64,000 nucleotides of DNA from Gemmatimonadales bacterium (GTDB taxonomy: Bacteria > Gemmatimonadota > Gemmatimonadetes > Gemmatimonadales > GWC2-71-9), in assembly GCA_965248285.1 (NCBI GenBank), contig CBDFJJ010000007.1, positions 109,209 to 173,208 on the forward strand, in the 5' to 3' direction. Positions 1,042 through 24,319 of the stretch are shown in pieces. The notes beneath the pieces are model-generated. The model saw only the letters and a list, made by a program, of their open reading frames with translations. It did no database searches and had not been told where the DNA came from. How positions within the stretch are numbered: position 1 is the stretch's first letter; each line of letters begins with the position of its first letter. The position numbers and the translations under genes are program-made.

Positions 1042-1058
1042 GGCACGATGCGTGCCAC
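1042..1058 (-). promoter_or_regulatory. sigma-54 type -24/-12 promoter A (drives P1)
   Basis: Minus strand reads GTGGCACGCATCGTGCC. TGGCACG is at -24 and GTGC at -12, with exact GG-N10-GC spacing. It lies about 55 nt upstream of ATG 988. Confidence 0.6.
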
Positions 1059-1082
1059 AGAGGACCCCACGGTGTCACATGT

Positions 1083-1090
1083 AAGTTGTT
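1083..1090 (-). promoter_or_regulatory. Conserved AAGTYRTT box A between upstream motif and promoter
   Basis: Plus strand AAGTTGTT, 25 nt beyond the -24 hexamer. The same octamer occupies the equivalent position at promoters B, C and D. Confidence 0.4.
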
Positions 1091-1148
1091 GTTGGAATTA
1101 GACTTGTGGAGTTGTATCGCAAGGTGGATTTGTTGGCCGAGCCATCAC

Positions 1149-1176
1149 GTTACTGAATGGTAACTAACCACGTAAC
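1149..1176. promoter_or_regulatory. 28-bp tripartite upstream motif A (candidate enhancer/UAS)
   Basis: Plus strand GTTAC-TGAAT-GGTAAC-TAACCAC-GTAAC, 91 nt upstream of the -24 element of promoter A. Confidence 0.6.
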
Positions 1177-1377
1177 AGATACCGTTTGGTGTCGCTGCGG
1201 TAACCGCGGTGCTTTGTGGGGCGACAGCGTCTCTGGGGCTCAAGCCCTCCACGAGTCGTGAATCGGGTCGACTAATCGAATACTCGCGGTAGACCCCGGC
1301 TTGCGCCGGCGTCCCATCCGCTCATACGTCGGGCGAATGGGACGGCGGCGGTGACTCATGCTAACCCACACGGATCG

Positions 1378-2628
1378 CTAGTTAATGGTCACTTCGATCC
1401 AGAAGTAGACCGAGCTGCCTGCGGCCAGCGAGGGTAGCGTTGCATCTACGTGCTCGGGCGGACCGTTGAGCTTGGTTATCGTCCACCCGCTTGCGTCATC
1501 GCCGTGGGTCACATAGCTGACCTCGCTCGGGAGATCGTCGTCCACGTCAATGCTGCTGGCGGCTGCCGTACCCGATGCGTTGCTGACGGTGACCTTGTAC
1601 CAGATCGACTGACCCGGCAGCACGTCGCCGCTCACAGGGGTCGTCAATCCGGCGTCCGTAAAGGCCTCTTTGGTGATCGTCACGCTGGGACGGATCACGG
1701 TGAGATCCGCGAAGCCGTCGTCGAACGTCGCCGGAGTCGTCACCGACCTGCCGCGTAAGTAAACGGTGTCTTGGGTTCCGGCGGCTACGTTGAGCACCGA
1801 GTAGACGACGACGATCGTCGTCGATGCGCCCGCCGCCAGATTGATGCGAGTGCTGTCTCCCGCCACGGCGTTGACCGACACGATTGCGATGTCGCTCGCG
1901 TCCTCAAACGACGCCAGAAGGTCGAAATCCTCCGGGCCGTTACCGTTGTTCTGCACGGTAAACTGGAACGTGTAGTCCGTGCCGTTGCTCGGCAGGTGCT
2001 GCAGGTTCTGTCCACCGTCCGGCGTCACGGTCACGGCGAACGTTTCGCTGGCGTTGATATCGTAGTCGCCTGCATCCGACTCTCCGCCATCGCGAACGGA
2101 CGTAGCCGTCAACTGGTAGTTGGCGCTCAGGCCACCCTTGCTAGAGGGTACGTCGTATGTCACCGTGATGATCGTTGACGCGCCCGCCGTGAGCTGGTAG
2201 GTCGAAAGAGCGGTGTTCAGAAGTGCGAGGGTGGCGTAGTTCCCCGCATTAAAGTTGTAGTTGGTGACGGAGATAACCGTGGGATCACCCGTGATCGACT
2301 CGGCGACCTGCACCGTATCGACGCCGTTACCGACGTTCTGAACGGTCAACGCCATCGTGCCACCAGTGCTTGGGGACGCTGGACTCTGCGATCCGCCGTC
2401 TGGCGTGAATGACAGACCGGCCTGGAAGCCCACCGTGATCGCCACGGAGCCGTTCACCGGCGTGTACGTGTTGCCGTTGGCGTCAGTCCACGACACCGTC
2501 GCGGTGTTGGTGATGACGGTGCCTTCCGCCGTTTGGGCCCGTGCTGCCGTGACGGCGACGGCCATGATGATGCCGCTCAACGCCACGGTTCGAGCCAAAG
2601 CTTTCAAGTGCAACATGCGTTTCTCCAT
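1378..2628 (-). CDS. Secreted multi-module protein with C-terminal DUF11-like module, P2
   Basis: Signal peptide MLHLKALARTVALSGIIMAVAVTAARAQT. Internal modules: ..FTPDGG..LTVQNVGNG.. and ..TVTPDGGQNLQHLPSNGTDYTFQFTVQNNGNG... C-terminal module: ITKEAF..GQSIWYKVTVSNASG..DLPSEVSYV... Start is 2628 or ATG 2616 (GGAG SD). It lies only 22 nt downstream of P3, so the two are probably co-transcribed. Confidence 0.7.
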   Translation of the reverse strand: MEKRMLHLKALARTVALSGIIMAVAVTAARAQTAEGTVITNTATVSWTDANGNTYTPVNGSVAITVGFQAGLSFTPDGGSQSPASPSTGGTMALTVQNVGNGVDTVQVAESITGDPTVISVTNYNFNAGNYATLALLNTALSTYQLTAGASTIITVTYDVPSSKGGLSANYQLTATSVRDGGESDAGDYDINASETFAVTVTPDGGQNLQHLPSNGTDYTFQFTVQNNGNGPEDFDLLASFEDASDIAIVSVNAVAGDSTRINLAAGASTTIVVVYSVLNVAAGTQDTVYLRGRSVTTPATFDDGFADLTVIRPSVTITKEAFTDAGLTTPVSGDVLPGQSIWYKVTVSNASGTAAASSIDVDDDLPSEVSYVTHGDDASGWTITKLNGPPEHVDATLPSLAAGSSVYFWIEVTIN

Positions 2629-2650
2629 TCCTTAAGAAAGGCGCGCTCTG

Positions 2651-3211
2651 TTAACGCCTCGACGCCCTGGGCTCTTTGCCAGGCTCTTGTGATGTGGCGT
2701 TCGCCACCAGCTTCGCTTCGAATTCTGCGGTGACCTGCACGCCGGGCTGCACCCAATCCTGGACGAGCCAGCGTATGTGGGTGTACCGCTCCGGCGGCGC
2801 CGGCCGCCTGATCGAACGGCCGTCAACCAGCACATCGACCAGCGGCTGTGTCGAATAGGTCAAACCACCGTCGATTGAGTACTCGATGACGACGTCGTCG
2901 CGGTCGGACAGAGCCGAGCCATCCACATAGGTCAGACCGGAGGGGATCGGGTCCTTCAACTCGATTCCGCGGACGGGTGCGTCGATGATGTTCGTGAACA
3001 CCAGCCGGTACAGCACCACGTCGCCGGCGAACAATGCTTGGGCGTCACCACCGCGCTCGGCGTGTCCGCGATGCATGGCGTCGCCCGCCATGAGATTCTC
3101 AGCCGTGATCACCAGCGCCTTGCGACCCTCGGCGTCCTGTGCGGCCGCCGGCGTGCTCCAAGACGCAGCGACCATAGCCGCCAATGCCAATACCTCTCGC
3201 CAGTGCTTCAT
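2651..3211 (-). CDS. Secreted DUF11 protein, P3
   Basis: ORF 2651..3301 trimmed to ATG 3211 (AGGAGA SD 7 nt upstream); the 3301 start would overlap promoter B. Signal peptide MKHWREVLALAAMVAASWSTPAAAQD. DUF11-like core: VVLYRLVFTNIIDAPVRGIELKDPIPSGLTYVDGS..IEYSIDGG. Confidence 0.7.
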   Translation of the reverse strand: MKHWREVLALAAMVAASWSTPAAAQDAEGRKALVITAENLMAGDAMHRGHAERGGDAQALFAGDVVLYRLVFTNIIDAPVRGIELKDPIPSGLTYVDGSALSDRDDVVIEYSIDGGLTYSTQPLVDVLVDGRSIRRPAPPERYTHIRWLVQDWVQPGVQVTAEFEAKLVANATSQEPGKEPRASRR

Positions 3212-3296
3212 CGCTCGATCTCCTGTTCTCTGGGTCCGGCTGGCGACGGTATTCGCCGCGTCGACAGCCTTTTGCTGTTCATGCGGGGGTGTAAAG

Positions 3297-3312
3297 AGCA
3301 TGCGGCATGCCG
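3297..3312 (-). promoter_or_regulatory. sigma-54 type -24/-12 promoter B (drives P3-P2)
   Basis: Minus strand reads CGGCATGCCGCATGCT. GG and GC are at the exact N10 spacing and the -12 region is ATGCT. It lies about 85 nt upstream of ATG 3211. Confidence 0.45.
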
Positions 3313-3341
3313 CGGGGTCACCGCGCGGTACGAGATCACAT

Positions 3342-3349
3342 AAGTTGTT
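3342..3349 (-). promoter_or_regulatory. Conserved AAGTYRTT box B
   Basis: Plus strand AAGTTGTT, 29 nt beyond the -24 hexamer of promoter B. Confidence 0.4.
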
Positions 3350-3409
3350 TCTTGACAGGTATTTACGGTGTCAGAACCGACCGGTTGTCACGAATTCGGC
3401 TGCTGCTGC

Positions 3410-3437
3410 GTTACCGAGAAGTAACAATATCGGTAAC
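3410..3437. promoter_or_regulatory. 28-bp tripartite upstream motif B
   Basis: Plus strand GTTAC-CGAGA-AGTAAC-AATATCG-GTAAC, 97 nt upstream of the -24 element of promoter B. Confidence 0.6.
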
Positions 3438-3612
3438 GGAATCCGTAGCGGAGGAGGGGTTCGGGGCGGCCGGACGTGGAGGCATCAACGAGGTCCGTGG
3501 CGCGGTGTTATGTCACTATTCACCACACTCGCTGCGAGCAATGCTCAGCTTGCGGGGCCTCCAGGATAGGGTGATCCGTCCGGTGCCGTTCGGGCCTGGA
3601 CCCCGAGCGCCG

Positions 3613-5178
3613 TCAGGATATCCTGCACACGAACTCCACTGTGCCGGTGTTGTCGGGTGCCGAGAAACCCAGGACATTCAGTAGGGTCCAGCGGATTCGG
3701 TCGACGCAGCCGTCGTAGTTGGCCGGGGCGCCACACCCGGTGGAGATCGGCACGTAGGTCCAGCTGCTACCGCCATCGTTGGAGTATTCGACCGTTACGC
3801 CGATTCCGACCGGCAAGTTGTTGACGACGCTCCCAACCTTGAACTCCACCTCAGCCGGCAACGAGTCCACGATCACCACACCGGCAGCGTCCTGGCTGCC
3901 GTCGTTGGTGACGGTGACCGTGTAGGTGAGGTCGGTGCCCGGGAGTTGCGTTCCGTTGGGATTGACCGACTTGGAGGTGGTCATACTCGGCTTAACCAGC
4001 TCCACGAACGCCGAGCCCGAGTCGGTGGAGTTGCTGTTGCTCACCGCCCGGCCCATGAGATACAGCGAGTCCAGGGTTCCGAGGGCGGCGTCCGAGACCT
4101 GGAACCACACGAAGGCGCTGTCACTTGAACTGGCGGGTATGTCGGCGATTCGCGCGCTGTCCGGGTCGGCTCCCCGGGTCACGTTGGGTCCGGTGACCGA
4201 ATCCGTCGTGAGGATGGTTGCGGAGTAGCCGAACAGATCGAAGGACTGGACGGCACCCGACGAGTTCGTGACCGTGAACTTGTACGACGTCGCCGTTCCG
4301 TTGCTGGGAAGAAGCCCCAACGTGTCCGCTCCATCGGGCGTGACGGTAAAGGCCACGGGCTGCACGGGTGCGATGGCAATCGTAACCGTTCTCGACTGCT
4401 CCGTATCCGTCAGCGAGAACGTCGACGTGCCACTCGAGCCCGCCGTCGCCTGGACCACGTAGCCGGCGCCGCCGGACACCGTGCCGCTGGCCGGGTCGCT
4501 CTCGTCCATGGTGATAGCCGTGTGTCCCGAGAGCCCCGGACTGTCTATTGTCACGTCGTCCTCGTCGAAGGCCCCCATGCGCACGATGAGCGTGTTGTCC
4601 ACCGTCGTCGTGACGGCGGGGCTGGTCGGCGTGGAGTTATTTCCGTCTTCGGCGGCGGCGACCACATGGATCGGTGCGGCGGCATCGTGGCCGGTAAAAC
4701 GCATCATCCAGGCATACACCTGCTGGGTGCCCGACCACGTGAACTGATGGGTCGCTGACTCCGACGCGCCGGCGAGCTTCCACCAGACGGCCAGCGTCAC
4801 TTCGTTGTTGTAGGCGCCCACGTCGATGAGCGTCCATCCCTCACCCCCAGGCGGGCTGATCGACGCAGCCGTGTTCCCGTCGGTCGCCACCGCGACGACC
4901 AGGAGGTCCCCATTGCTCGTGCCACACGGGATGGGAACGTCGATGGATAGCACGTTGCTGCTCGCCTTCGCCTCCGCGCCGCCCTCGTAGCGCACCGGGG
5001 CACCGCCCGGCGTCCCGAAGCACCCCTGGGCGAGAGCCGGTGGCGCGAAGATCCCGCCCGCCACGAGGAGAGCGACGCCCAAGAACAGCGTTCTCGGGTT
5101 GAGGAGAGAGAGCGCCAGGCCACGGCTCCCGGCGGTCCTAGGGACCGACGAGCTCAACCCGCTCCCCGAAATCAGCAT
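3613..5178 (-). CDS. Large secreted protein with C-terminal DUF11 module, P4
   Basis: ORF 3613..5280 begins with TTG; ATG 5178 is the more likely start (GGAGAGGAAAG upstream). Hydrophobic signal ..LFLGVALLVAGGIFAPPALAQG. Central module FTVTPDGADTLGLLPSNGTATSYKFTVTNSSG is shared with P2. C-terminal module: GTDLTYTVTVTNDGSQDAAGVVIVDSLPAEVEF..VEYSNDGGSSW. Confidence 0.7.
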   Translation of the reverse strand: MLISGSGLSSSVPRTAGSRGLALSLLNPRTLFLGVALLVAGGIFAPPALAQGCFGTPGGAPVRYEGGAEAKASSNVLSIDVPIPCGTSNGDLLVVAVATDGNTAASISPPGGEGWTLIDVGAYNNEVTLAVWWKLAGASESATHQFTWSGTQQVYAWMMRFTGHDAAAPIHVVAAAEDGNNSTPTSPAVTTTVDNTLIVRMGAFDEDDVTIDSPGLSGHTAITMDESDPASGTVSGGAGYVVQATAGSSGTSTFSLTDTEQSRTVTIAIAPVQPVAFTVTPDGADTLGLLPSNGTATSYKFTVTNSSGAVQSFDLFGYSATILTTDSVTGPNVTRGADPDSARIADIPASSSDSAFVWFQVSDAALGTLDSLYLMGRAVSNSNSTDSGSAFVELVKPSMTTSKSVNPNGTQLPGTDLTYTVTVTNDGSQDAAGVVIVDSLPAEVEFKVGSVVNNLPVGIGVTVEYSNDGGSSWTYVPISTGCGAPANYDGCVDRIRWTLLNVLGFSAPDNTGTVEFVCRIS

Positions 5179-5276
5179 TGACAGCTTTCCTCTCCGAAGG
5201 CGAGGACCACAACGGACCGCGCAACCAGGTGTGCCCCCGGACTCCGTCCAACAATCAGATCGCTGGCTCTCATGGC

Positions 5277-5486
5277 TCAACGAACACGCCGCGCGTCGGG
5301 TTCAAGGTCGTTCTCCCTGCACTTGTCCTGTGGCGCCACACGACCGCGGGGGGGAAGCCGATCGTTCAAATGCGGCTCCCGCCACGCGAACGGCTGGCCG
5401 CATACGGGACAGACAACCAGACTGCCCATCACGCCGCCGAACGGGTATTGGCGACTGCGACAGCATTTTGGACACGTGAGTCTCAG
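5277..5486 (-). CDS. Candidate 69-aa zinc-ribbon protein, absent from the ORF track (non-canonical start)
   Basis: My own translation of the minus strand gives (L/M)RLTCPKCCRSRQYPFGGVMGSLVVCPVCGQPFAWREPHLNDRLPPRGRVAPQDKCRENDLEPDARRVR*, with two CxxC pairs 18 residues apart. GGAGG SD at 5493-5497 lies 6 nt before CTG 5486, and no ATG/GTG/TTG precedes the first CxxC. Its stop TGA (5277-5279) overlaps TTG 5280 of the P4 ORF (GTTGA). It sits in the otherwise empty ~340-nt leader downstream of promoter C. Confidence 0.4.
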   Translation of the reverse strand: MRLTCPKCCRSRQYPFGGVMGSLVVCPVCGQPFAWREPHLNDRLPPRGRVAPQDKCRENDLEPDARRVR

Positions 5487-5526
5487 CCTTCACCTCCCGA
5501 TGCGAGAATCTTGCGCCACATCAGCA

Positions 5527-5542
5527 AGCATGGCTCATGCCA
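5527..5542 (-). promoter_or_regulatory. sigma-54 type -24/-12 promoter C (drives zinc-ribbon ORF and P4)
   Basis: Minus strand reads TGGCATGAGCCATGCT: TGGCAT at -24, ATGC at -12, exact GG-N10-GC spacing. Confidence 0.5.
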
Positions 5543-5570
5543 GCCCAGACGCAGCTTCTAAAAAAGCGTG

Positions 5571-5578
5571 AAGTTGTT
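5571..5578 (-). promoter_or_regulatory. Conserved AAGTYRTT box C
   Basis: Plus strand AAGTTGTT, 28 nt beyond the -24 hexamer of promoter C. Confidence 0.4.
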
Positions 5579-5637
5579 GCTGTAAAATGACTTACACGTC
5601 TAGACGGGGAGGGGGTTGCGGCTAAGCATACGGTGCT

Positions 5638-5665
5638 GTTACGAAATGGTAACGCACCATGTAAC
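5638..5665. promoter_or_regulatory. 28-bp tripartite upstream motif C
   Basis: Plus strand GTTAC-GAAAT-GGTAAC-GCACCAT-GTAAC, 95 nt upstream of the -24 element of promoter C. Confidence 0.6.
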
Positions 5666-5728
5666 GGAGTGCGGGGTTAGAGGCGAGGTCTTGCGGGGTT
5701 CAAGGCCGCCTCCATCACCAAGGCGGTC

Positions 5729-7201
5729 TCACAGCAGACCGTGCTTCTTGCGCTTCTCCCACAAATTCTTGCGCGAGATACCAAGGATCTCAGCAGCTTT
5801 CTCCACAGCCCCGTCGCACGCATCCATAGTGCGGCCGATATACTTCTTTTCGGCCCCGGCCAGCGTCAGGCCCTTAGGAATCTCGAAAGCCGCGTCGGAC
5901 TCTGTGTTCGCCGTGGTAACGTCGAGACGTCCGAACTCCGGCAGGTCGGTGGTCTGGAGCACGGCGCCCGCGGCGAAGATCATGGCCCATTCCATGACGT
6001 TTCTGAGTTCCCGCACGTTGCCGGGCCAGTTCCACTCCTGCAGCACCTGGGCGGCCTCCGGGCTGATCGACCGTACCTCCTTGCGGAACTCCCGGTTGAA
6101 CACCCCCAGGAAATGGTCGGCCAGGAGCGCGATGTCCTCCTTGACGTCCCGGAGAGATGGTAGGCAATGGGTGGCGACGCTGATCCGATAGTAGAGGTCG
6201 TTGCGAAACCGCCCGGCGCGGACCGCCTCATCCAAGTCGCGGTTCGTGGCAGTGATCAGCCGGAGGGCAACCTCGATCTCCTCCGTCCCACCGATCCGGC
6301 GAAACTGGCGGGACTCGAAGAAGTTGAGGAGCTTGGCCTGAAGCTCGGGGGAGAGATCTCCGATCTCGTCGAGAAACAGGGTCCCGCCGTCTGCCACTTC
6401 AACCAGGCCCCGCTTTGACTCGCGGGCGTCCGTGAACGCTCCCTTCTGGTGGCCGAACAGCTCCGCCTCGATAAGCTGGGGGGGCAGCGCCGAGCAGTTG
6501 ATTTCGACGAACCGCCCCTCCGAATCTGGGCTCGAGTAGTGGATCGCGCGAGCCACCAGGTTCTTCCCCGTTCCGCTCTCGCCAAGCAGCAGCACCGTCG
6601 GCCGTGGGATGTCGGCGATCTGGCGGACGAACTGGCGGACCTCCTCAATTCTCGGGTGCTCACCGAGAATCGCACGAACGGAGAATTCCTCCCGCCGCAC
6701 CTGCCGGAGGGTCGTAGCTTCCTCACGCAGCGGTCGCTCGTCGAGAGCGCGCTTGAGTAGTGCGTTGAACTCGTCGATGTTAACTGGCTTGGTCAGGTAG
6801 TCGGTTGCGCCGGCTTTCAACGCCTCAATTGCTGTCGCCATTTCCGCGTGGGCAGTGACGACGAAAATTGGCAGATGCGGGTCGCGCCCACGAAGCCGCC
6901 GCGTCACGTCGATGCCGCTGAGACCGGGCATCACGAGGTCGGTGACGATCGCATCGGGCAAGTCTTCCGCGCACCGCGCGAAGAGTTTTTCGGGATCGTC
7001 GAAGACTTCCCCGCGCAAGCGAGCCGCCGGATCGAGGTTGGCGGCTAGTAGCTTTGCAAAATCGAGGTCGTCATCCAGGATATAGATTCTCGGTATCACA
7101 AGTCGAATAATTGCGTCGAAGAGGTTGAGCCACAAGCCGCGCACTCCCGCCTCGAGACAGGGCGCGAATGGAGCCACGTTCATCGTCCTCGTGATCGACA
7201 C
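5729..7201 (-). CDS. sigma-54-dependent response regulator (NtrC-type enhancer-binding protein: REC + AAA+ + Fis-type HTH)
   Basis: REC domain: [21 protein letters not shown]+ domain: Walker [16 protein letters not shown], sigma-54 contact loop KGAFTDA (a GAFTGA variant), Walker [12 protein letters not shown], and [14 protein letters not shown]-terminal HTH: [21 protein letters not shown]. Confidence 0.9.
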
Positions 7202-7322
7202 TACTGGCGTCGGTGGCGAAGGTTACGCGGTCGTCTAACTGAGGCTAAGCCCAGACGTGGTTGCGATCGCAAACACCTCCCCGACGACGCCGACGCTATC
7301 GCCGGACCGAATTGGTCCGCGA

Positions 7323-7928
7323 TCAAGGGGTCATATTGGATCGCAAGTTTGGGACCAATAGGAGAGGCATATCTGTCATAGGAACGATCGTGTCCGCCGG
7401 CTGGAACGGCACCGGGATCGGTGCCGGTGAAGGCACTTTGCTGTTGGCGTTTCCGATCGCCGAACCGGCTCCGGTTGAGACCAACACGAACGCCGCGAAA
7501 GCGCCCGCTCGAATCATCCGTCGCTTGAAGTTCCGCGAAAGACGAGCCTCGAGGGCGCGGGTTTTCGTTCGCAGGACCGCTTTCTCCGCCCCCCTTTCGA
7601 TGGCCACCGCCAGGTGATCCAGGGCAACCGGCTTTGCTAGAAAGTTCTCCGCGCCAACGCGCATCGCTCGTACGGCGTCCTCGATTTCAGCCTGCCCGGT
7701 GAGCATGATCACCACCGCACGCTTCTCGCGCAGTCGATCCAACACCTCCATCCCTGACATGCCAGGCATCTTGAGGTCCAGCACCGTGACCTGAGGAGAA
7801 ACACGTTTCCAGGTTGCAATGCCTTCGGAACCCGACGCCGCCGTGTATACCGCGTGCCCAAGCTGCCGGAGGTGTGTGCTCAGGAGGTTCAGAAGATCGA
7901 CATCGTCGTCAATGATGAGAATACGCAT
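7323..7928 (-). CDS. Receiver (REC) domain protein with a C-terminal hydrophobic helix and no output domain
   Basis: ORF 7323..7961 trimmed to ATG 7928 (GGAG SD 8 nt upstream). REC: MRILIIDDDVDLL..VLDLKMPGMSG..LAKP. This is followed by ..RRMIRAGAFAAFVLVSTGAGSAIG.. (predicted TM) and a Pro-rich tail. Confidence 0.75.
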   Translation of the reverse strand: MRILIIDDDVDLLNLLSTHLRQLGHAVYTAASGSEGIATWKRVSPQVTVLDLKMPGMSGMEVLDRLREKRAVVIMLTGQAEIEDAVRAMRVGAENFLAKPVALDHLAVAIERGAEKAVLRTKTRALEARLSRNFKRRMIRAGAFAAFVLVSTGAGSAIGNANSKVPSPAPIPVPFQPADTIVPMTDMPLLLVPNLRSNMTP

Positions 7929-7966
7929 GGGTTTCGCTCCAAGTGGCAGCTTCCACCTCACTCAAC

Positions 7967-7982
7967 AGCAGGAGACGTGCCA
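7967..7982 (-). promoter_or_regulatory. sigma-54 type -24/-12 promoter D (drives the REC-TM / EBP operon)
   Basis: Minus strand reads TGGCACGTCTCCTGCT: TGGCACG at -24, CTGC at -12, exact spacing. It lies about 40 nt upstream of ATG 7928. Confidence 0.6.
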
Positions 7983-8010
7983 CTCGGGGACGGGCGCTGG
8001 CCGACCCTGT

Positions 8011-8018
8011 AAGTCATT
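8011..8018 (-). promoter_or_regulatory. Conserved AAGTYRTT box D (variant AAGTCATT)
   Basis: 28 nt beyond the -24 hexamer of promoter D. Two further AAGTTG copies follow at 8023-8034. Confidence 0.3.
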
Positions 8019-8079
8019 ATTCAAGTTGAAGTTGCGGTGTTTCAGCGAGGTGGCTGCGCCTGGTGACCGGGAAACTATG

Positions 8080-8107
8080 GTTACTAGACGGGAACCACCA
8101 GCGTCAC
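8080..8107. promoter_or_regulatory. 28-bp tripartite upstream motif D1 (degenerate)
   Basis: Plus strand GTTAC-TAGAC-GGGAAC-CACCAGC-GTCAC, 97 nt from the -24 element of promoter D. Confidence 0.5.
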
Positions 8108-8108
8108 T

Positions 8109-8136
8109 ATTACAGTATGGTAACAGTCCATGCTAC
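8109..8136. promoter_or_regulatory. 28-bp tripartite upstream motif D2
   Basis: Plus strand ATTAC-AGTAT-GGTAAC-AGTCCAT-GCTAC. It is tandem to D1 (29-bp period) and lies 114 nt from the -24 element of promoter E. Confidence 0.55.
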
Positions 8137-8250
8137 CCGCCCTGGAGGTGGTCTAGCCGTCCTGAAGGACCGCAAACCGGAACTGGCCGGTCTCTTCAAC
8201 CGGGACAGGACTTGCAGGTGTCAAGATCGTTGGTCGAGGAGGTAGACTTT

Positions 8251-8266
8251 TGGTATCACGGATGCA
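8251..8266 (+). promoter_or_regulatory. Candidate sigma-54 type promoter E (drives the REC-Hpt-HK operon)
   Basis: Plus strand TGGTATCACGGATGCA: GG-N10-GC spacing is exact and the -12 ATGC matches promoters B and C, but the -24 hexamer TGGTAT is weaker. It lies about 70 nt upstream of ATG 8336. Confidence 0.35.
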
Positions 8267-8335
8267 ATACTTGCCGATCGAAGGCATCGTTACAGGGCCG
8301 CTGCTCCTTCGACCACCTCGGAGCGCCAAGGGCGA

Positions 8336-8719
8336 ATGTCAACACCCTTCCGGATAGTCATAATCGACGATGACGCTGATCTTCGGGAGCTGATCAAAGT
8401 GACGTTGGAGTTTACGGCTGGTTGGGAGGTTGTAACGGCTGCCGACGGCCCCGAGGGGATTGCCGCCGTACGGCGGTCGACGCCCGACGCCGTCGTGGTA
8501 GACCTTATGATGCCCGGCATGGACGGCTATGAGGTGTGCCGTCAGCTTCGTCAGGATCCTGAAACGGCAGAGATTCACCTTGTCCTGCTGACCGCCCGCA
8601 GGCAGCTTGACCAGGCGCAATTCGAGTCCGCGGGTTCCGTGGGGGTCATCTTCAAACCATTCGAACTGGACGACCTCGCACCCCGCATTCTTGAACTTTG
8701 TGGATCCCGGGATGGTTGA
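8336..8719 (+). CDS. Single-domain response regulator (CheY-like receiver)
   Basis: FRIVIIDDDADLRELI..AVVVDLMMPGMDGYEV..VLLTAR..IFKPF: the canonical REC acidic pocket, phospho-Asp and Lys. Confidence 0.9.
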   Translation: MSTPFRIVIIDDDADLRELIKVTLEFTAGWEVVTAADGPEGIAAVRRSTPDAVVVDLMMPGMDGYEVCRQLRQDPETAEIHLVLLTARRQLDQAQFESAGSVGVIFKPFELDDLAPRILELCGSRDG

Positions 8720-9086
8720 CGATCAGGACCGGGGCGCTGCCGGTCACGATGCCCAGCTGGCCGAGATTCACCGCCAGTTTTCCCAGGGGTTGCCCGCTCG
8801 ACTAGAAATCCTGCGATCCGCCTTAGTCGAACTCACAGAAGGCTACCAACAGGCCATGGCCGAAAGTTTCTATCGCGCGGCGCACTCACTCAAGGGAACT
8901 GCGGCGTCCTTCGGTACCCCCGATCTGGCAGCGCACGCTGCACTCCTCGCTGATCTGGGAGACGGGTGGGTGCGGCGCCACGCTGCCCCGCACGACGAAA
9001 TCTCGTCTGCGTCCGCCGAGCTTCAGCGACTCGAAGCGACGATGGAGGCATACACAGGAAGAGTGGAGGGCGGCGGAGCAGAATGA
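8712..9086 (+). CDS. Hpt (histidine phosphotransfer) domain protein
   Basis: ORF 8607..9086 trimmed to ATG 8712, which overlaps the upstream stop. Hpt signature: FYRAAHSLKGTAASFG. Confidence 0.8.
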   Translation: MVDDQDRGAAGHDAQLAEIHRQFSQGLPARLEILRSALVELTEGYQQAMAESFYRAAHSLKGTAASFGTPDLAAHAALLADLGDGWVRRHAAPHDEISSASAELQRLEATMEAYTGRVEGGGAE

Positions 9087-10789
9087 CGCCGCAACGCGAC
9101 TCGCGGACCCTCTCAGACACCGATCGGCTCGAAGTTGTCGGTGAGCTCGCTGCACTGATCAACACAAAGTTCGATCTGAACGAGATTTTCGAGGCGGCCA
9201 TCCTGAAGCTGCGGCGCGTGATGGAATTCCGCCGTGCCAGTGTGCTGCTCCTCTCCGAAGACCGACACCACTATTACCTGCACACTTTATACGACGCGGA
9301 CAGCGGCGGGTTTGTCCAGTTGTTACAGGAGTTCAGCCTCGACGAGGGTCGCCCCGGAAAGGTGATCCGCACCGGGCAAGCGATGCTGGTGAACGAGTTC
9401 GAGGGCACTGAGGGAATCCGCAGCAAGGGTGAGCAACAAGTGTCAGCGCTAATTGTCCCACTTCGAGTGGAAGACGATGTCATAGGAACGCTCAACTTTG
9501 GAGTTGGCAGCACTAAGATTTACCGGGAGGAGGACCTGGAACTCGCGATCCTGCTGGCGCGACCGATCGAAACGTCACTGCACTACTCCAGGCTTTTCGC
9601 TACGATCCAAAGCCAGCGGGAACAACTGGCGATTGAAAATGCGCAAGTTCAGTCCGAGCGAACCCGCCTAGAAGCCCTCATCGAAGCAAGCGACGCTGCA
9701 ATTCTTATGGTAAGCGACGACATTGTCGCTCACGCAAACGGCACCATGGCTCGCCTGCTCGGCGTTCCCCTCGAAACCCTCGTGGGGGCGCCGATGGAAC
9801 ACATCAATCAGGCGGTTGCCCAGTCGCTGGCTGACCCCGAGGCGCTTGCCGTACAGACCGCCGCGCTCAATCGGGCAAGCCCGCCGCTGCGGGACCGAGT
9901 TGAATTCGTCTTTCCACGTCGGGCCATTTGCCAGCGCACGGTGGCTACGGTGCCCGGGGTGGGGGGCGACGTGCTGGGCTTTTTGCTGCTTTACCGCGAC
10001 GTCACGCGCGAAGCCGACGCGGAAGCCGCTAAGGACGAGTTCCTTGCCACAGTCAGCCACGAACTTCGCACCCCGCTCACCTCGATAAAGACTTCCCTCG
10101 GCCTGCTCGGGAAAGGCGCCGCAGGGACAGTGACCCAGCAGATGCAGAAGTTTCTCGATATCGCACTCCGCAATCTCCAGCGACTCATTCGACTGGTGGA
10201 CGACCTGCTCGACCTCTCCAGGGTCGCAAACGGGCGTTCCAAACCCACCCTCGTGCCGGTGTCCATTAAGGAAGCTACCGACCGCGCGGTGGAGGCTGTC
10301 CGCGGCTCTATTCAGGAGCGGGACGTCAAGCTGGAGCGCGACCGCCCCGCAAAGTCGATGCTCGTTAAGGGCGATGCCGATGGCTTGGTGCAGGTCGTCG
10401 TCAATCTCCTGTCCAACGCCGTCAAGTTCTCGCCCCGTGGGGGGCGCGTCACACTGGGCTGGCGGAAAGACGGCGACTTCGCCGTCCTCGAGATCTCGGA
10501 CGAAGGACCTGGATTGCCGGCCGACATGCTCGAAACGATCTTCGACAAGTTCCTGCAACTCGACGGGTCGTCCACTCGCCGTCACGAAGGAGTCGGGTTG
10601 GGACTTCACATCAGTCAGATCATAGTCGAAGATTTCGGGGGCAGGATCTGGGCGGAGAGCGAGGACGGGCAGGGATCTCGGTTCTTCGTCCGACTGGCGC
10701 TGGCCGACGCAGCTCCCAAACCCAATGAGATCGAAGGTCAGATCAAAACCGTCCAGGCCGAGGAGGGTCATCGTGGAGAAGAATCCTGA
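9083..10789 (+). CDS. GAF/PAS sensor histidine kinase
   Basis: ORF 8966..10789 trimmed to ATG 9083 (ATGA overlap with the Hpt stop). H-box FLATVSHELRTPLTSI, N-box NLLSNAVKFSP, G1 DEGPGL, G2 GVGLGLHIS. N-terminal GAF-like and PAS-like regions. No C-terminal receiver. Confidence 0.9.
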   Translation: MTPQRDSRTLSDTDRLEVVGELAALINTKFDLNEIFEAAILKLRRVMEFRRASVLLLSEDRHHYYLHTLYDADSGGFVQLLQEFSLDEGRPGKVIRTGQAMLVNEFEGTEGIRSKGEQQVSALIVPLRVEDDVIGTLNFGVGSTKIYREEDLELAILLARPIETSLHYSRLFATIQSQREQLAIENAQVQSERTRLEALIEASDAAILMVSDDIVAHANGTMARLLGVPLETLVGAPMEHINQAVAQSLADPEALAVQTAALNRASPPLRDRVEFVFPRRAICQRTVATVPGVGGDVLGFLLLYRDVTREADAEAAKDEFLATVSHELRTPLTSIKTSLGLLGKGAAGTVTQQMQKFLDIALRNLQRLIRLVDDLLDLSRVANGRSKPTLVPVSIKEATDRAVEAVRGSIQERDVKLERDRPAKSMLVKGDADGLVQVVVNLLSNAVKFSPRGGRVTLGWRKDGDFAVLEISDEGPGLPADMLETIFDKFLQLDGSSTRRHEGVGLGLHISQIIVEDFGGRIWAESEDGQGSRFFVRLALADAAPKPNEIEGQIKTVQAEEGHRGEES

Positions 10790-10790
10790 C

Positions 10791-12485
10791 GTGCCGCATC
10801 TTCTGGTTGTGAACCACCGAGTTTCCCACTTTGTAATTGTCTTGCTCTTTGCCATGACATCCAACCTCACCGCTCAAGAGACGCGTCCGTCGACCCTGGC
10901 CGGTCGCTCGACCGTGTATGCCCCACGCGGGGCGATCGCCACCAGCCAACCCCTCGCCACCGCAGCCGGTCTCGCCGTCCTGCAGCGTGGCGGCAACGCG
11001 TTCGACGCCGCCGTGACCGCGGCGGCCGTGCTCAATGTCGTGGAGCCCCATATGACGGGAATGGGTGGTGATCTCTTTGCGCTGTTCTGGTCTCAGAGCG
11101 AGCAACGACTGGTGGGCTTGGACGCAAGCGGCCACGCGGGCGCGTTGATGACGCGTGATGAGTTGCTGGCGCGCGGCCGAGAGAGGGTTCCCTCGAACGG
11201 CGCAGAAGCAATCACTGTTCCGGGCGCACTGTCGGGTTGGGCGGCGCTCTTGGAAAAGTACGGCACGATCAGCCTCGCGGAGGCACTCGCTCCCGCCATC
11301 CGAATAGCTGACGAAGGTTTCCCAGTCACACCGATCATCGCGGCGCAGTGGGGTGGTGCCGACCGCAGGCTCGCACGGGACCCGGGTGCACGCGCAACGT
11401 ATCTGATAGACGGAGAACGCGCGCCCCATGCGGGCGAGTGGTTCCGTAACCCCGACATCGCGGCGTCGTTCCAAAGCATCGCCGCCAAAGGACCCGGCGT
11501 TTTTTACGGAGGCGAGTTGGGGCGCAAGGTGGTGGACGGCGTCCGCGAGCTGGGTGGATTCCTCACCATCGAAGATCTCGCCAGTCACGAGCCGAGCTGG
11601 GTAGAGCCCCTCTCGGTCGCTTTCAAGGGATACCGGGTGTGGGAGCTTCCACCGAGTGGGCAAGGGATCGCCGCACTAGAAATGCTTCGGATCTTGGAGC
11701 CCTACGACCTGAAAGCGATGGGCCACAACTCTGCAGCCTACCTTCATCATCTCATCGAATCCAAGAAACTGGCGTTCGCGGACCTGGCGCGTTTCGTGGG
11801 CGACCGCGACCACATGATCGTTTCGGCCGAAGACCTCCTGTCTGATGAGTTCGTCGAGCAACGGCGCGCGCTGCTGAACCCAACCCGTGCCGCCGACCGA
11901 GTAGACCCAGGTAAGGCCGTAACGTCCAGCGAGACGATTTATCTCACCGCGTCCGATCAGCACGGCAACATGGTATCGTTCATCAACAGTATTTACTCGT
12001 CATTCGGCTCCGGCGTCGTCGTGCCCGGCACCGGCTTTGCCCTGCAGAACCGCGGCGCCGGGTTCACGATAGAACCCGATCACCCCAACACGGTGGCGCC
12101 CGGCAAGCACCCTTTCCACACAATTATTCCAGCTTTCGTCACAAAGGATCAAGGTGGAGAGCAGATTCCGTGGCTGAGTTTCGGTGTGATGGGTGGTTCC
12201 ATGCAACCGCAGGGACACGTCCAGGTGTTCTTGAGTCTGATCCTCTTCGATATGGACCTTCAGGATGCGATCGACGCTCCGCGGTTTCGGCACATGGGCG
12301 GCCGCCGCGTGGCTATCGAGTCACCTGTCGGGGAGGAAGTGCGTCGTGCACTCGAATCGATGGGACACGAGTTGATAGACGAAAGCGGAGCGTCCTTCGG
12401 TGGTGGGCAGGCTATCATGCGCTTGCTTCGAGGTTGGGCCGCCGCATCCGATCCAAGAAAGGACGGGATGGCGGCAGGACACTGA
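10791..12485 (+). CDS. ggt: Gamma-glutamyltranspeptidase
   Basis: GAIATSQPLATAAGLAVLQRGGNAFDAAV..HMTGMGGD and the nucleophile region TIYLTASDQHGNMVSFINSIYSSFGSG. ORF track start 10725 overlaps the HK gene. In-frame GTG 10791 (GGAGAAG SD) gives a signal peptide ..FVIVLLFAMTSNLTAQE. Confidence 0.9.
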   Translation: MPHLLVVNHRVSHFVIVLLFAMTSNLTAQETRPSTLAGRSTVYAPRGAIATSQPLATAAGLAVLQRGGNAFDAAVTAAAVLNVVEPHMTGMGGDLFALFWSQSEQRLVGLDASGHAGALMTRDELLARGRERVPSNGAEAITVPGALSGWAALLEKYGTISLAEALAPAIRIADEGFPVTPIIAAQWGGADRRLARDPGARATYLIDGERAPHAGEWFRNPDIAASFQSIAAKGPGVFYGGELGRKVVDGVRELGGFLTIEDLASHEPSWVEPLSVAFKGYRVWELPPSGQGIAALEMLRILEPYDLKAMGHNSAAYLHHLIESKKLAFADLARFVGDRDHMIVSAEDLLSDEFVEQRRALLNPTRAADRVDPGKAVTSSETIYLTASDQHGNMVSFINSIYSSFGSGVVVPGTGFALQNRGAGFTIEPDHPNTVAPGKHPFHTIIPAFVTKDQGGEQIPWLSFGVMGGSMQPQGHVQVFLSLILFDMDLQDAIDAPRFRHMGGRRVAIESPVGEEVRRALESMGHELIDESGASFGGGQAIMRLLRGWAAASDPRKDGMAAGH

Positions 12486-12573
12486 GATCAGCCTTAGTGG
12501 GCAGTAAGCAGTGGGTAGTAGGGTGTTCAAGTGTGCGCTAACGACTTGGGACTAATCCTTCTCGAAGACCAGC

Positions 12574-13973
12574 GAGTTATTTTCGAAAGTTGTGGATTGG
12601 AGGAATGAGAAAGGCGGCGTATCCTTTCGTGTAGTCAGTTGAAACGTACACGAGATCCGGTTGTGACGACCGGAGAAAGGACACGCCACCGATGTTGAGG
12701 ATAATAGAGAATGCGTCTGAGAGCAAAGGGAACGGACTGTTCGCAGACCTGGACGAGCTTGCCAGAGAGGGAGCTCGGCGGATGCTGGTGAGTGCGTTGG
12801 ACGCGGAAGTGACCGAGTATGTCGAGCGATATCGGATTGAGCGAGACGGAGAGGGCCGCGCCCTGGTGGTGCGCAATGGCAAAGCCCGTCCCCGCAAGGT
12901 GACGCTGGGTGCTGGTACGGTCACGGTGACCGCGCCACGGGTGCATGACCGTCGTATGCGGGCGCAGTTCACGAGCAAGATTTTGCCTCCCTATATGCGG
13001 CGGTCGCCGAAGGTGGCGGAGGTCTTGCCGGTGTTGTATCTGCGCGGTCTGTCGACGGGAGATTTTCGCGAGGCGTTGCCGATCTTGTTGGGTGAGGACG
13101 CATCAGGCTTGTCCCCGACGACGATCACGCGATTGACGGCGGCGTGGGAGGGGGAATACCAGGCGTTTCGCCAGCGTGATCTGCGTGATCGGGAGTATGT
13201 GTACGTCTGGGTCGACGGGATCCACTTCAACATTCGCCTCGAGGCCGACCGGCTGTGTACGCTGGTGATGCTGGGCGCCCGGGCGGATGGGACGAAAGAG
13301 CTGATCGCGGTGGAGGACGGCTATCGGGAGAGCACGGAGAGCTGGTTGGCGGTGTTGCGCGATCTGAAGCGTCGGGGGATGCGGGCCCCGGTGCTGGCGA
13401 TTGGGGATGGCGCGTTGGGGTTCTGGGCAGCGGTGCGGGAGGTGTGGCCGGCGACGCGGCAGCAGCGCGACTGGGTGCACCGGATGGCCAACGTGTTGGA
13501 CAAGCTTCCGAAACGTTTGCAGCCGGCGGCGAAGCGGGTGTTGCGCGAGATGATGTGTGCGGAGGCCGAGGCGCTGGTCGAGCGTTTCGCCACCGCGTAT
13601 GCGGCCAAGTATCCCAAGGCGGTCGCCTCGCTCACGCGGGACCAGGAGCACCTGTACAGCCATTTTGATTTTCCGGCCGAGCATTGGAAACATATCCGTT
13701 CGACGAACGTGATCGAGTCTGCCTTCGCGACGGTCCGGTTACGACAGCGCGTGACCAAGGGAGCGGGCTCGCGGAGCAAAGGGCTGACGATGGCGTTCAA
13801 GCTGTTGGAGATGGCGCAGCAACGTTGGCGGAAACTCAACGCTCCAGAACTTCTCCCCCTGGTGTTGGCAGGAGAACAATTCAAAGATGGTATGCAGGAA
13901 ACTGACAAAGAGAACACGGATCGGAAGGTCGCCGCTTGATCACTCACCGATCCACAACATTTGACAATACCTC
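12574..13973 (+). mobile_element. IS256-family insertion sequence, copy 1 (1400 bp)
   Basis: Imperfect 27-bp terminal inverted repeats: GAGTTATTTTCGAAAGTTGTGGATTGG and the reverse complement of CCGATCCACAACATTTGACAATACCTC. Perfect 9-bp target duplication AAGACCAGC at 12565-12573 and 13974-13982. Confidence 0.9.
12692..13939 (+). CDS. IS256-family (Mutator-type) transposase, 415 aa
   Basis: WVDGIHFNIRLE..ALGFWAAVREVWPATRQQRDWVHRMANVLDKLP..STNVIESAF fits the Mutator/IS256 family pattern. It is 4 aa shorter than copies 2 and 3. Confidence 0.9.
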   Translation: MLRIIENASESKGNGLFADLDELAREGARRMLVSALDAEVTEYVERYRIERDGEGRALVVRNGKARPRKVTLGAGTVTVTAPRVHDRRMRAQFTSKILPPYMRRSPKVAEVLPVLYLRGLSTGDFREALPILLGEDASGLSPTTITRLTAAWEGEYQAFRQRDLRDREYVYVWVDGIHFNIRLEADRLCTLVMLGARADGTKELIAVEDGYRESTESWLAVLRDLKRRGMRAPVLAIGDGALGFWAAVREVWPATRQQRDWVHRMANVLDKLPKRLQPAAKRVLREMMCAEAEALVERFATAYAAKYPKAVASLTRDQEHLYSHFDFPAEHWKHIRSTNVIESAFATVRLRQRVTKGAGSRSKGLTMAFKLLEMAQQRWRKLNAPELLPLVLAGEQFKDGMQETDKENTDRKVAA

Positions 13974-14671
13974 AAGACCAGCTGCATTCGCGCTTTGTCA
14001 CGAGCAGGACGCATGTCTTCGTTCCAGTCCCCGCACGCTAGAAGCATACGGAGACCGTGTTCTGCGCAAATCGACTCGAGTTCCCCTTCCATATATAGGC
14101 GCCACTCGAACCGATCCGTTGCCTCGCTCGAAGCGTATTGCAGGTCGACCACCAATCGCTGGTCGGAGTAACGCGACTTCTGCGTGATCGTCTCGCCGCC
14201 TCTGGACAGCGTGCGGGTACCGTCGAGCCCCTCGAAATGCTCTCGGTTGTATACATCGAGAACAAAACGTCCACCATCGACCAGTCGTGCCGCGATCTGT
14301 CTCACGACTAGTGCATTGGTCGCATCGTCGAAGTAGCCGAAGCTCTGCCAAAGACAAATCAACGCGTCAGCGCTTCCTTTTATCTCGGATAGACGCCGCA
14401 TATCCGCCTGAATATAGGCCACCGCGTCGCCGTCCCGGTTTTGTGCCGCCGCCAGCACGGTGCCGTTCCGATCTACACCGGTTACCTCGTAACCGTGCGA
14501 CGCCAACAACCGGGTGTGTCGCCCCGAGCCGCAACACAGGTCGGTGATCACGCGATAACGCGGCTGTGGCAATTGTCTCTTGAGAAACGCGACCTCGGCA
14601 GCCGTCTGATCTTCGGAGATCGTGTTCAGGAACACTGCGTACCACTTGCGCGAGAAAGTATTGCCTGACAC
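13940..14671 (-). CDS. Class I SAM-dependent methyltransferase with its C-terminus replaced by IS256 insertion
   Basis: Motif I VITDLCCGSGRHTRLLA. The last 11 codons (LRYCQMLWIGE*) are read from the IS end. Joining the flanks across the IS restores ..KARMQLVFEKD*. Confidence 0.75.
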   Translation of the reverse strand: MSGNTFSRKWYAVFLNTISEDQTAAEVAFLKRQLPQPRYRVITDLCCGSGRHTRLLASHGYEVTGVDRNGTVLAAAQNRDGDAVAYIQADMRRLSEIKGSADALICLWQSFGYFDDATNALVVRQIAARLVDGGRFVLDVYNREHFEGLDGTRTLSRGGETITQKSRYSDQRLVVDLQYASSEATDRFEWRLYMEGELESICAEHGLRMLLACGDWNEDMRPARDKARMQLVLRYCQMLWIGE

Positions 14672-14683
14672 GATGTGACTTTT

Positions 14684-14983
14684 CTAAGAACCCGGCTGCG
14701 ACAGCAGCTCCGTTATGAAAACGGCCCGATGGATTCTGTCCAGGTTTGGAAACTCCGCATCGAGATGAGCGTTCCCCTCGGCAATGATTTTGCCCTCATT
14801 GCCGCCACGCATTCCGCCGCCAGCCGATTCATCGTATTCCGCGTATAGCTGCTCCACTACGTCCATTCCCTCAACGATTCTGGCAATCGGAGCGAAGCCT
14901 TGATTGTCGAGTTCTGTACTGTCATCGAGATTGATGTACAGTTGCGTCGTACGGGTGTCCGGCCCCGTCATTGCATACGCCAC
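14684..14983 (-). pseudogene. Cyclophilin-type peptidyl-prolyl isomerase, C-terminal fragment only
   Basis: AMTGPDTRTTQLYINL..FAPIARIVEGMDVVEQL is the C-terminal half of a cyclophilin fold. An in-frame TGA lies 3 codons upstream of the GTG start, and the N-terminal half is absent. Confidence 0.6.
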
Positions 14984-15095
14984 AAATCCCTTTCAGTATG
15001 AAAAAAGGCAGGGACGTGGGGGTCGTTCGCCCCGACCTTGTGCCCGCACGATGCACACTGTCGCTCGCCGTAGGAGCCCGAGAACAACATCAGAT

Positions 15096-15658
15096 CTACT
15101 CGTAGCCCTCGAGCAATCGCTGCCGCGCGATATCGAGGGCCTCGGGAAAGCTGATCCGCAGCGCCTCAATGCGATAACCGTCCGCAAGGCAGTCGAGCGT
15201 CTGGTCACGAAAGGCAAGCACGTAGTGATTCTGCTCGGGGTAGCTAGACAGGTCGAACTGCGGATGGCGGCTGTCAAGTTGTTTCCCCTCTTCAATCCAC
15301 CTTGAGTTCTTGACCAAATAGGCACCGTGCCCGCCATAGCCACGTCCCACGAGCACGTGGCCGGCCTCCTCATTCGGGCCCCCGAATTCACGTCGCTGCA
15401 GCGCTCGAACTCCACAAGCGCGATTGGGCGCACCGCCTCGGACGCTGGATTGGCCATCCGAACGTATGATCCATCCCAGTTGGGATCGTGTTCGGCAATG
15501 TAGTAGAGCAAGAAGGTTTTCCAACCCGAGCACAGAAGGTGGGGCTCCGGAGCACCTTCGTCCCATATCGGGCTCCAGTATAGCGCGGTGGTGGTTTCTT
15601 CTCCCTTTGCCAGAGCCAGCTGACGTTCCGCCTTTAACTGGGACTGGTACGCTAACAT
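15096..15658 (-). pseudogene. Hypothetical protein gene with a frameshift
   Basis: The N-terminal part is in ORF 14993..15658 (MLAYQSQLKAERQL..PIALVEFERC). The C-terminal part is in ORF 15096..15743 (..EFGGPNEEAGHVLVGRGYGG..LLEGYE). The frames switch near 15370-15390 at a G/C run. No family recognised. Confidence 0.45.
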
Positions 15659-15786
15659 GCCTTCCTATTGGCAGGCGCCCTTCTACACCACTCCCGCATC
15701 GCCTGTAGCTTCGCTTCAAGCTCGTCCAATTCCGACATAGCACCTAGCCCTCAAAGCAGATCGGCTCACCGACGTTGGCCACCCTG

Positions 15787-16470: not shown

Positions 16471-16514
16471 CAGATAGCGCCACTCAGCGGTCAGGAGCGT
16501 CGTAGCCTTGGTGT

Positions 16515-17144: not shown

Positions 17145-17261
17145 TCCACGTGGTAAGCGGGCCAGTGTGAGAACGCGCCTTGGGATGGTGAGTATGAACC
17201 GCAGAACTGCGCTTCGGAAGGGTCAGTGCAAATCGCCACTCCCATCTAGGACAGGAACCGG

Positions 17262-17786: not shown

Positions 17787-17800
17787 TGCATACCTCCGTG

Positions 17801-18151: not shown

Positions 18152-18395
18152 CGGAATAACCTCGCTCTTGCTTCATCACCACTGTCTTCATCATCACTGT
18201 CTCAAATCTCCAAAAATGAAGCCATTAGTCACGTACGCCATCCGCACTGGCCAAGGCCTCCGCTACCTGATCAGCCTTGCACACAACTCGAGCACCTGCC
18301 CGGCCGTGCGACCAGTAGCCTGCGGGAGTGCCTGCTCGAGACGACCCGCGAAATCGAGCCGATGCTGTTGGAGACCCACAAAATGCGCGTGAGGC

Positions 18396-18574: not shown

Positions 18575-18704
18575 CTAGCAGGTTGCGGAAAAATTGATGG
18601 TGAGCCGCGTTTGTCCGGGTAACACGACGGTGTACCAGCGTGCGGTCCCCTATTACCGCCCCCGCGGTGCGGTCGGCGTGACGAATGCGGCCCACACTGC
18701 CCCA

Positions 18705-19442: not shown

Positions 19443-19476
19443 GAGGTATTGTCAAATGTTGTGGATCGGTGAGTGA

Positions 19477-24310: not shown

Positions 24311-24319
24311 CGCGGGACG

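Follow-up and report, generated by a model that had tools for sequence, protein, structure and literature searches.

A probable sigma-54 regulon with a polar enhancer, controlling secreted DUF11 proteins in a Gemmatimonadales bacterium

Promoters of the sigma-54 type follow the consensus TGGCAC-N5-TTGC, with transcription starting around 12 nt after the GC, an upstream activating sequence (UAS) some 80-150 bp upstream and an activator that carries a GAFTGA loop. In the NtrC-glnAp2 system of enterobacteria, the activator is composed of a receiver, an AAA+ domain and a Fis-type helix-turn-helix (HTH), and its dyad sites of approximately 16-17 bp are located around 100-140 bp upstream of GG-N10-GC. 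NifA-nifH and other IHF-assisted promoters have an enhancer, an A/T-rich bend site and the -24/-12 element, and depend on the face of the helix. Here we describe a stretch of 64,000 nt from a Gemmatimonadales bacterium (contig CBDFJJ010000007.1 of assembly GCA_965248285.1, positions 109,209-173,208 of the forward strand), referred to as the window. Its region between 1 and 10.8 kb is very probably a self-contained sigma-54 regulon, in which four promoters (A, B, C and D), each with an enhancer, drive a cluster of secreted DUF11 proteins (P1 to P4).

The locus shares with NtrC-glnAp2 the set of activator domains, a dyad enhancer present at more than one site and an activator operon that would be autoregulated, here through promoter D. 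On the contrary, the half-site is GTTACC and not the TGCACC of NtrC, the enhancer is made polar by a fixed third direct half-site, and the outputs are secreted DUF11 proteins instead of nitrogen assimilation genes. The three-part layout, with a CAA-N4-TTR core in the A/T-rich part, is like that of NifA-nifH and other IHF-assisted promoters, and the quantised spacing suggests a dependence on the face of the helix. Unlike in those promoters, just the 3' core of the IHF consensus WATCAANNNNTTR is matched, and the IHF box of this locus is a putative one.

A further likeness is seen with PrsK-PrsR (TIGR02915, PEP-CTERM box response regulator), where a sigma-54 response regulator serves a local group of secreted or surface proteins. 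This model is the third-best NCBIfam match of the activator, but its score of 353.4 bits is below the cut-off of 502.6. The scores for NtrC, AtoC, ZraR and all named equivalogs are likewise below their cut-offs; the activator is therefore orthologous to none of the named ones. The Pfam and NCBIfam scans of P1-P4 gave no match to a PEP-CTERM model, the C-termini not having been directly examined, and the window showed no exosortase. More broadly, sigma-54 has been linked to the cell exterior (Francke et al. 2011, PMC3162934). The secreted outputs P1-P4, in a diderm phylum with sigma-54, fit this theme. That paper describes neither the cluster, the enhancer nor the zinc-ribbon cistron, and the term "DUF11" is absent from its text; no paper on the cluster or the enhancer was found in the literature.

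The intergenic regions holding A to D align as one cassette of approximately 150 bp (alignment A1; 57% mean column identity). First comes the enhancer GTTAC-N7-GTTACC-N4-GGTAAC, then an A/T-rich box with AACAACTTAC at its end, and last the -24/-12 element xGGCAYG-N4-xTGC. The enhancer consists of the dyad GTTACC-N4-GGTAAC and a third GTTAC half-site 12 nt upstream, and because this half-site is invariably on the promoter-distal side, the enhancer has a polarity. With an enhancer matrix trained on other genomes, the top five matches of the window are exactly the five copies of the cluster, and the best unrelated match reaches 6.7 bits. Two of these copies are in tandem, an arrangement also found in L005 and L016 (L-numbers are labels of related loci, among them 17 orthologous Gemmatimonadota loci and metagenomic ones; L001 and L006 derive from the complete genomes CP070823.1 and CP070812.1). 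Pairs of enhancer and promoter separated by 80-120 nt occur four times in the window and in none of 200 simulated windows.

A preliminary description of this DNA had proposed five sigma-54 sites, A to E. A pattern search of the window finds the five 15-mers at exactly the coordinates and strands reported there, and all are intergenic and oriented towards a gene. The GG and GC are exactly 10 nt apart in A-E, as in all orthologous and metagenomic cassette sites. The sites were also said to lie 40-90 nt upstream of a start codon or, in the case of C, upstream of a zinc-ribbon ORF, and the gaps from A to E are indeed 55, 87, 42, 40 and 71 nt, counted from the promoter-proximal end of the 15-mer to the start codon (for C, to a CTG start at 5486). 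The sigma-54 interpretation itself survives for A-D, on the grounds of the activator, a conserved enhancer whose distance is fixed and quantised, the IHF-like box that separates it from the promoter, and the recurrence in 17 orthologous loci and 55 metagenomic matches; for E it is not supported.

In terms of the bare match, A-D read xGGCA[CT]G-N4-xTGC, in agreement with the extended consensus, and score 12.5-17.3 bits on a promoter matrix trained solely on 18 non-redundant orthologous sites from other genomes. The top three places in the window go to D, B and A (17.3, 17.3 and 15.5 bits), with C in eighth place, and simulated windows have a mean top score of 14.5 bits and a maximum of 17.1. 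The pattern YGGYAY-N6-TGC has 9 matches per 64 kb against 4.8 expected, a count reached by 6 of 100 shuffles. Matches in coding sequence at 40014, 31143 and 34587 score above C, and one at 12024 slightly below (12.1 bits). The preliminary description had named matches of equal quality and density in coding or shuffled sequence as what would refute the sites. Such matches of equal quality were found, and the GG/GC matches alone would not stand. What makes A-D non-random is their context, since a tripartite enhancer precedes each of them by 107-113 nt.

The four coding matches were rejected as promoters, being inside long open reading frames (ORFs), that at 12024 in a gamma-glutamyltransferase gene, and having no enhancer. 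The site at 16538 was also discarded; it is a small hairpin over a stop codon, has no enhancer, and a start there would leave no ribosome-binding site. This perfect hairpin, GGCAC-GCTTA-GTGCC (16538-16552), resembles site A and spans the stop between two minus-strand genes. Furthermore, a 153-nt direct repeat with 91.5% identity (31064-31216 and 34508-34658) flanks S9/DPP-IV peptidase genes and contains GGCACATCGCyTGG matches of 12.9-13.6 bits on the promoter matrix.

These figures bear on an alternative in which the GG/GC pairs are there by chance and the palindrome is the operator of an activator or repressor of the sigma-70 type, with transcription starting elsewhere. As this alternative would have it, the window shows no enrichment of the bare -24/-12 pattern and the scores of A-D are within the range of simulated top scores. 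TyrR, DhaR and HupR are sigma-54-type AAA+ proteins that act at sigma-70 promoters (cited in PMC3162934), and the loop of the present activator is non-canonical. However, the F and T of this loop, the critical residues according to PMC3162934, are intact, and a scan for sigma-70-type promoters gave 3 weak sites against 1.7 expected, none adjoining A-C. Further contrary evidence comes from metagenomes.

We scanned a metagenome collection with the enhancer pattern alone, obtaining 79 usable matches, and set a threshold of at least 10 bits for a site. A site is present 88-114 nt downstream of the enhancer in 55 of the 79, compared to 0 of 74 in the opposite direction. The sequence of the -24/-12 element is kept while its flanks diverge. 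With this one-sided placement and conservation, the operator alternative is very improbable. Nearly all of the 55 adjoin genes of the cluster, with P4 or the activator on the upstream side or else P3 or P1 on the downstream side, and L137 has only the zinc-ribbon ORF. As for the 24 matches with no site, some are on contigs of low G+C (0.27-0.56) and look like chance occurrences, and others are on contigs of similar G+C.

Gemmatimonadota genomes are the source of all the closest relatives of the activator (64-73% identity). Around these, the genes run in the order kinase, Hpt and RR3 in one direction and, after a gap of approximately 80 bp, activator, P4-like, P3, P2 and P1 in the other. The cassette recurs in 17 orthologous loci with the same orientation and similar spacing. 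We judged 22 palindromes in these loci to be enhancer copies, one per cassette, and each has a GGCAC-type site 86-113 nt further on in the direction of the gene; the palindrome of L014 at 9360 was left unscored, being 67 nt from the contig end. An equivalent of promoter C is found directly 3' of the activator gene in 15 orthologous loci, and one of promoter B between P4 and P3 in most relatives. Promoter A is restricted to the window, L008, L125 and L151, the P1 gene elsewhere following P2 directly. In L125 and L151 its 15-mer is at the same distance from the enhancer, upstream of P1 orthologues with 87-89% identity. Further P1 orthologues are present in L002, L008, L012, L013 and L015. In L003, L004, L006 and L016 the first gene after the cassette of the activator is not the zinc-ribbon ORF with P4. 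It encodes another secreted protein (GQGWYDxNWxYRKKITID...), which means that the outputs of the regulon vary by lineage.

The A/T content of the cassette climbs to 54-63% between -50 and -16 relative to the T of the -24 element. Within 54 non-redundant cassettes, CAA-N4-TTR is found on the gene strand in 22 and on the opposite strand in 11, with around 1.5 expected. In the same set, the spacing between enhancer and promoter divides into three classes, whose modes are 89-90, 101-103 and 113 nt. This quantised spacing suggests helical phasing, short of a formal proof.

The cassettes could also be relics of a mobile intergenic element, similar to repetitive extragenic palindromes (REP) or miniature inverted-repeat transposable elements (MITE), with no regulatory role. 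Some of their positions are lineage-specific, A being limited to the four loci above and D to the window, and the neighbourhood is rich in insertion sequences (IS). But the copies share only their functional boxes, as the mean column identity of A1 indicates, and they keep a constant orientation to the downstream gene, 30-90 nt from its start codon every time. The enhancer pattern occurs nowhere else in the window, and steps of about one helical turn in the spacing fit selection on geometry. We regard the relic explanation as highly implausible.

Under the sigma-54 reading, the GAF-PAS histidine kinase, Hpt and RR3, a single-domain receiver, would pass phosphate to the NtrC-type enhancer-binding protein. 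Its HTH_8 domain would then bind GTTAC-N7-GTTACC-N4-GGTAAC, as suggested by their co-occurrence, and a protein of the IHF/HU type may bend the A/T-rich CAA-N4-TTR box. The AAA+ ring would thereby meet the sigma-54 holoenzyme at xGGCAYG-N4-xTGC and open the promoter by ATP hydrolysis, and transcription is predicted to begin about 12 nt past the GC.

Several points weigh against this reading. The loop of the activator is GAFTDA in all 17 orthologues and in 56 of 83 retrieved relatives, and not the canonical GAFTGA. No RpoN box was found in six-frame translations of the window and of L001-L080, and that this genome has sigma-54 is an assumption drawn from the phylum, whose type species Gemmatimonas aurantiaca T-27 has a sigma-54 orthologue (PMC3162934, additional file 1). 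Promoter C reaches just 12.5 bits and is equalled by matches in coding sequence, while the A/T-rich box leaves the full 13-nt IHF consensus unmatched. Finally, the best-fit period of the spacing is 11.75 bp, above the helical turn of 10.5 bp; an equal fit was obtained in 0 of 5000 uniform null sets, but the sequences are related, and the spacing and conservation statistics overstate their independence.

Site E presents a contrasting picture. It faces the RR3-Hpt-kinase operon, which all orthologues keep in divergent orientation to the activator gene. In the relatives, the short intergenic region between RR3 and the activator is the orthologue of 8190-8335, which has in addition a decayed activator 5' end (alignment A2). 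If all five sites worked as sigma-54 promoters, E would drive this operon through the tandem enhancers at 8080-8138. E does have GG-N10-GC, its core GGTAT-N6-TGC resembles the Klebsiella nifH promoter, and YGGTATCAT-N3-TGC is found at its place in L001-L004, L006, L016, L117 and L108. Moreover, after a duplication described below, the copy beside RR3 still has TGC and that at the working activator start has AGTCG, a single observation. The enhancers of the window are 142-171 nt upstream of E. However, they are oriented for D and outside the range of 86-114 nt, leaving E with no properly spaced enhancer, and in the orthologues no enhancer was found within 1.4 kb upstream of the equivalent of E. 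The family matrix gives E a negative score, and coding constraint explains its GGTATCA, which corresponds to the Val/Met-Ile-Pro start codons of the activator relic read in antisense. L128 (AGTAT) and L116 (GATAT), both close relatives, have lost the GG, and L005 and L008 the GC, in contrast to an overlapping TGCAATAyTT box that is invariant in the closest clade; in L140, with around 70% identity, this box reads GGCAATACTT. A regulon of five sigma-54 promoters is thus unlikely, and E itself a doubtful member.

Instead, E probably overlaps a -10 element of the sigma-70 type, possibly an extended one, belonging to the phosphorelay operon or to an ancestral activator promoter. An AATAyT core is present in most of the more distant relatives. 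The TGCAATAyTT/AATAyT box occurs at 8262-8271 and 7102-7111 of the window, with equivalents in the RR3-activator intergenic region of L001-L018 and of metagenomic loci. In the closest clade the box stops 6 nt short of the ATG of the activator, an arrangement compatible with a sigma-70-type promoter that makes a leaderless transcript. A second candidate in this region, E', was rejected, as it scores only 7.5 bits, is inside relic coding sequence, and the polarity of the enhancer points the opposite way.

The preferred reading, with A-D as the promoters, also includes an insertion particular to this genome. RR2 has no orthologue in 137 related loci, its best match (41% identity) being to other receiver domains, and promoter D has no counterpart in the same loci. 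A decayed duplicate of the activator 5' end is located at 8225-8262 on the minus strand, beside RR3, and reads VIPKVYLLD before a frameshift (compare 7074-7114). RR2 and promoter D thus seem to have entered the activator gene at its 5' end, with a duplication of approximately 40-75 nt of it. With this insertion the activator is downstream of its own target promoter, which would result in positive autoregulation. Its start is probably the GTG at 7099, the corresponding codon being where the orthologues begin with MIPRIY. Behind its receiver, RR2 has a hydrophobic stretch, MIRAGAFAAFVLVSTGAGSAIG, and then a tail rich in proline; it may be a membrane-tethered receiver. A comparison of its C-terminal 85 aa with the PDB gave no match.

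The four putative transcription units contain RR2 and the activator (D), the zinc-ribbon ORF and P4 (C), P3 and P2 (B), and P1 (A). The zinc-ribbon ORF had been noted in the preliminary description, and its existence is borne out, with the frame now placed at 5277-5486. The L001 homologue starts with MLLRCPHC. We found 57 unique homologues, with the pattern M[VL]LRCPxC-N17-CPxC-xxxFxW and a basic tail. In most relatives the sigma-54 site has this ORF as its first cistron, usually ahead of P3. The window has CTG at the start position, with GGAGG 6 nt upstream, as opposed to ATG in the relatives, and the ORF here may have either a rare CTG start or be a recently inactivated gene. A profile search against PDB and Pfam returned only generic zinc-ribbon similarity below the cut-offs. 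In L158 the ORF reads with no stop into the P3 homologue, for a total of 243 aa, and the L140 protein has an internal tandem duplication of FSWxEAQVEVAGAEVEEST.

Domains were assigned by Pfam and NCBIfam scans (Table 1). Signal peptides and the DUF11/TIGR01451 type are common to P1, P2, P3 and P4, and these beta-sandwich outputs are probably cell-surface proteins. The positions of the sites had been used earlier to choose between start codons. For P3 this holds: the start is the ATG at 3211 and not 3301, since orthologue alignments begin at residues 2-4 of the protein starting at 3211, and the coordinate originally given, 3212, was off by one. An Rfam scan of the whole window gave zero matches, so the long leaders are no known RNA elements. 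A terminator scan between the units found nothing convincing. A look-up of the exact RR3 sequence in public assemblies returned no record.

Table 1. Genes, predicted promoter elements and enhancer copies in the window (positions counted from the first nucleotide of the window; bits refer to the family matrices)
Feature	Position	Strand	Evidence and remarks
P1, secreted DUF11-repeat protein, 304 aa	74..988	-	Pfam DUF11 1.3e-12, TIGR01451; unit A
Promoter A (-24/-12 element of P1), TGGCACGCATCGTGC	1043..1057	-	exact match; 15.5 bits, window rank 3
A/T-rich box of cassette A, CAAGTCTAATTCCAACAACAACTTACATG	1077..1105	-	IHF-like core CAA-N4-TTA; conserved columns in alignment A1
Enhancer (UAS) A, GTTAC-N7-GTTACC-N4-xGTAAC	1149..1178	-	29.8 bits; 107 nt to -24 element
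P2, secreted DUF11 protein, 416 aa	1378..2628	-	Pfam, orthologues; second gene, unit B
P3, secreted DUF11-type protein, 186 aa	2651..3211	-	TIGR01451 1e-09; first gene, unit B
Promoter B, CGGCATGCCGCATGC	3298..3312	-	17.3 bits, shared top score of window
Enhancer B	3410..3439	-	27.2 bits; 113 nt to -24 element
P4, secreted DUF11 protein, 521 aa	3613..5178	-	Pfam, NCBIfam, orthologues; second gene, unit C
Zinc-ribbon ORF, 69 aa, CPKC-N17-CPVC-xxxFAW	5277..5486	-	L001 homologue; first cistron, unit C
Promoter C, TGGCATGAGCCATGC	5528..5542	-	12.5 bits, rank 8
Enhancer C	5638..5667	-	31.0 bits, best of window; 111 nt to -24 element
Enhancer-binding protein: REC, sigma-54 AAA+, HTH_8	5729..7099	-	Pfam Sigma54_activat 1.3e-63, Response_reg, HTH_8
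RR2, receiver and hydrophobic C-terminal segment	7323..7928	-	Pfam; first gene, unit D; this genome only
Promoter D, TGGCACGTCTCCTGC	7968..7982	-	17.3 bits, shared top score of window
Tandem degenerate enhancers, oriented for D	8080-8109, 8109-8138	-	16.3 and 15.5 bits; 113 and 142 nt from D
E', weak -24/-12-like element CGGGACAGGACTTGCA	8201..8216	+	7.5 bits; 92 nt from enhancer copy 2
Site E, TGGTATCACGGATGC	8251..8265	+	-4.4 bits on family matrix; overlaps activator start relic and box TGCAATACTT (8262-8271)
Phosphorelay operon	8336..10789	+	Pfam: RR3 8336-8719, Hpt 8712-9086, GAF-PAS histidine kinase 9083-10789

The gamma-glutamyltransferase gene (10725-12485) is immediately 3' of the kinase gene. 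It is followed by an IS-rich island that adjoins the cluster (12571-26963), with a further IS at 58605-59924. Three copies of the IS256 family (Mutator transposase), 99-100% identical, are located at 12571-13973, 19443-20854 and 22899-24310. IS5-like copies are found at 25644-26963 and 58605-59924, and a third is interrupted by an IS256 copy, its parts being at 18575-19442 and 21006-21467. An IS3-type integrase ORF lies at 24497-25408, and the G+C drops to 0.58-0.59 around the hairpin at 16538, between approximately 14 and 18.7 kb of the window. Next, the region 27051-58545 holds a series of large hydrolase genes of the secreted type, with prolyl oligopeptidase/DPP-IV proteins and proteins combining a PD40 beta-propeller and an amidohydrolase.

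A more speculative view, to which we give little weight, is that the cassette of approximately 150 bp is a portable module that rewires the cluster by lineage, that one copy arrived with RR2 and made the activator self-controlled, and that the zinc-ribbon protein is dedicated to feedback on the activator or on sigma-54, and no bystander.

The sigma-54 regulon of this locus is well supported and was previously undescribed; its mechanics are ordinary and the type of regulation is well known. For genome scans, the locus shows that a -24/-12 match alone cannot tell real sites from coding noise, and that a coupled enhancer at a quantised distance can. The enhancer search pattern retrieves the same system from metagenomes, with 55 true cases in 79 usable matches. 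Gemmatimonadota are abundant in soil and their gene regulation is almost unstudied. The present locus offers a concrete and testable regulon for this phylum, with a phosphorelay and a sigma-54 activator, a defined enhancer, four promoters, and DUF11 proteins together with a conserved zinc-ribbon protein.

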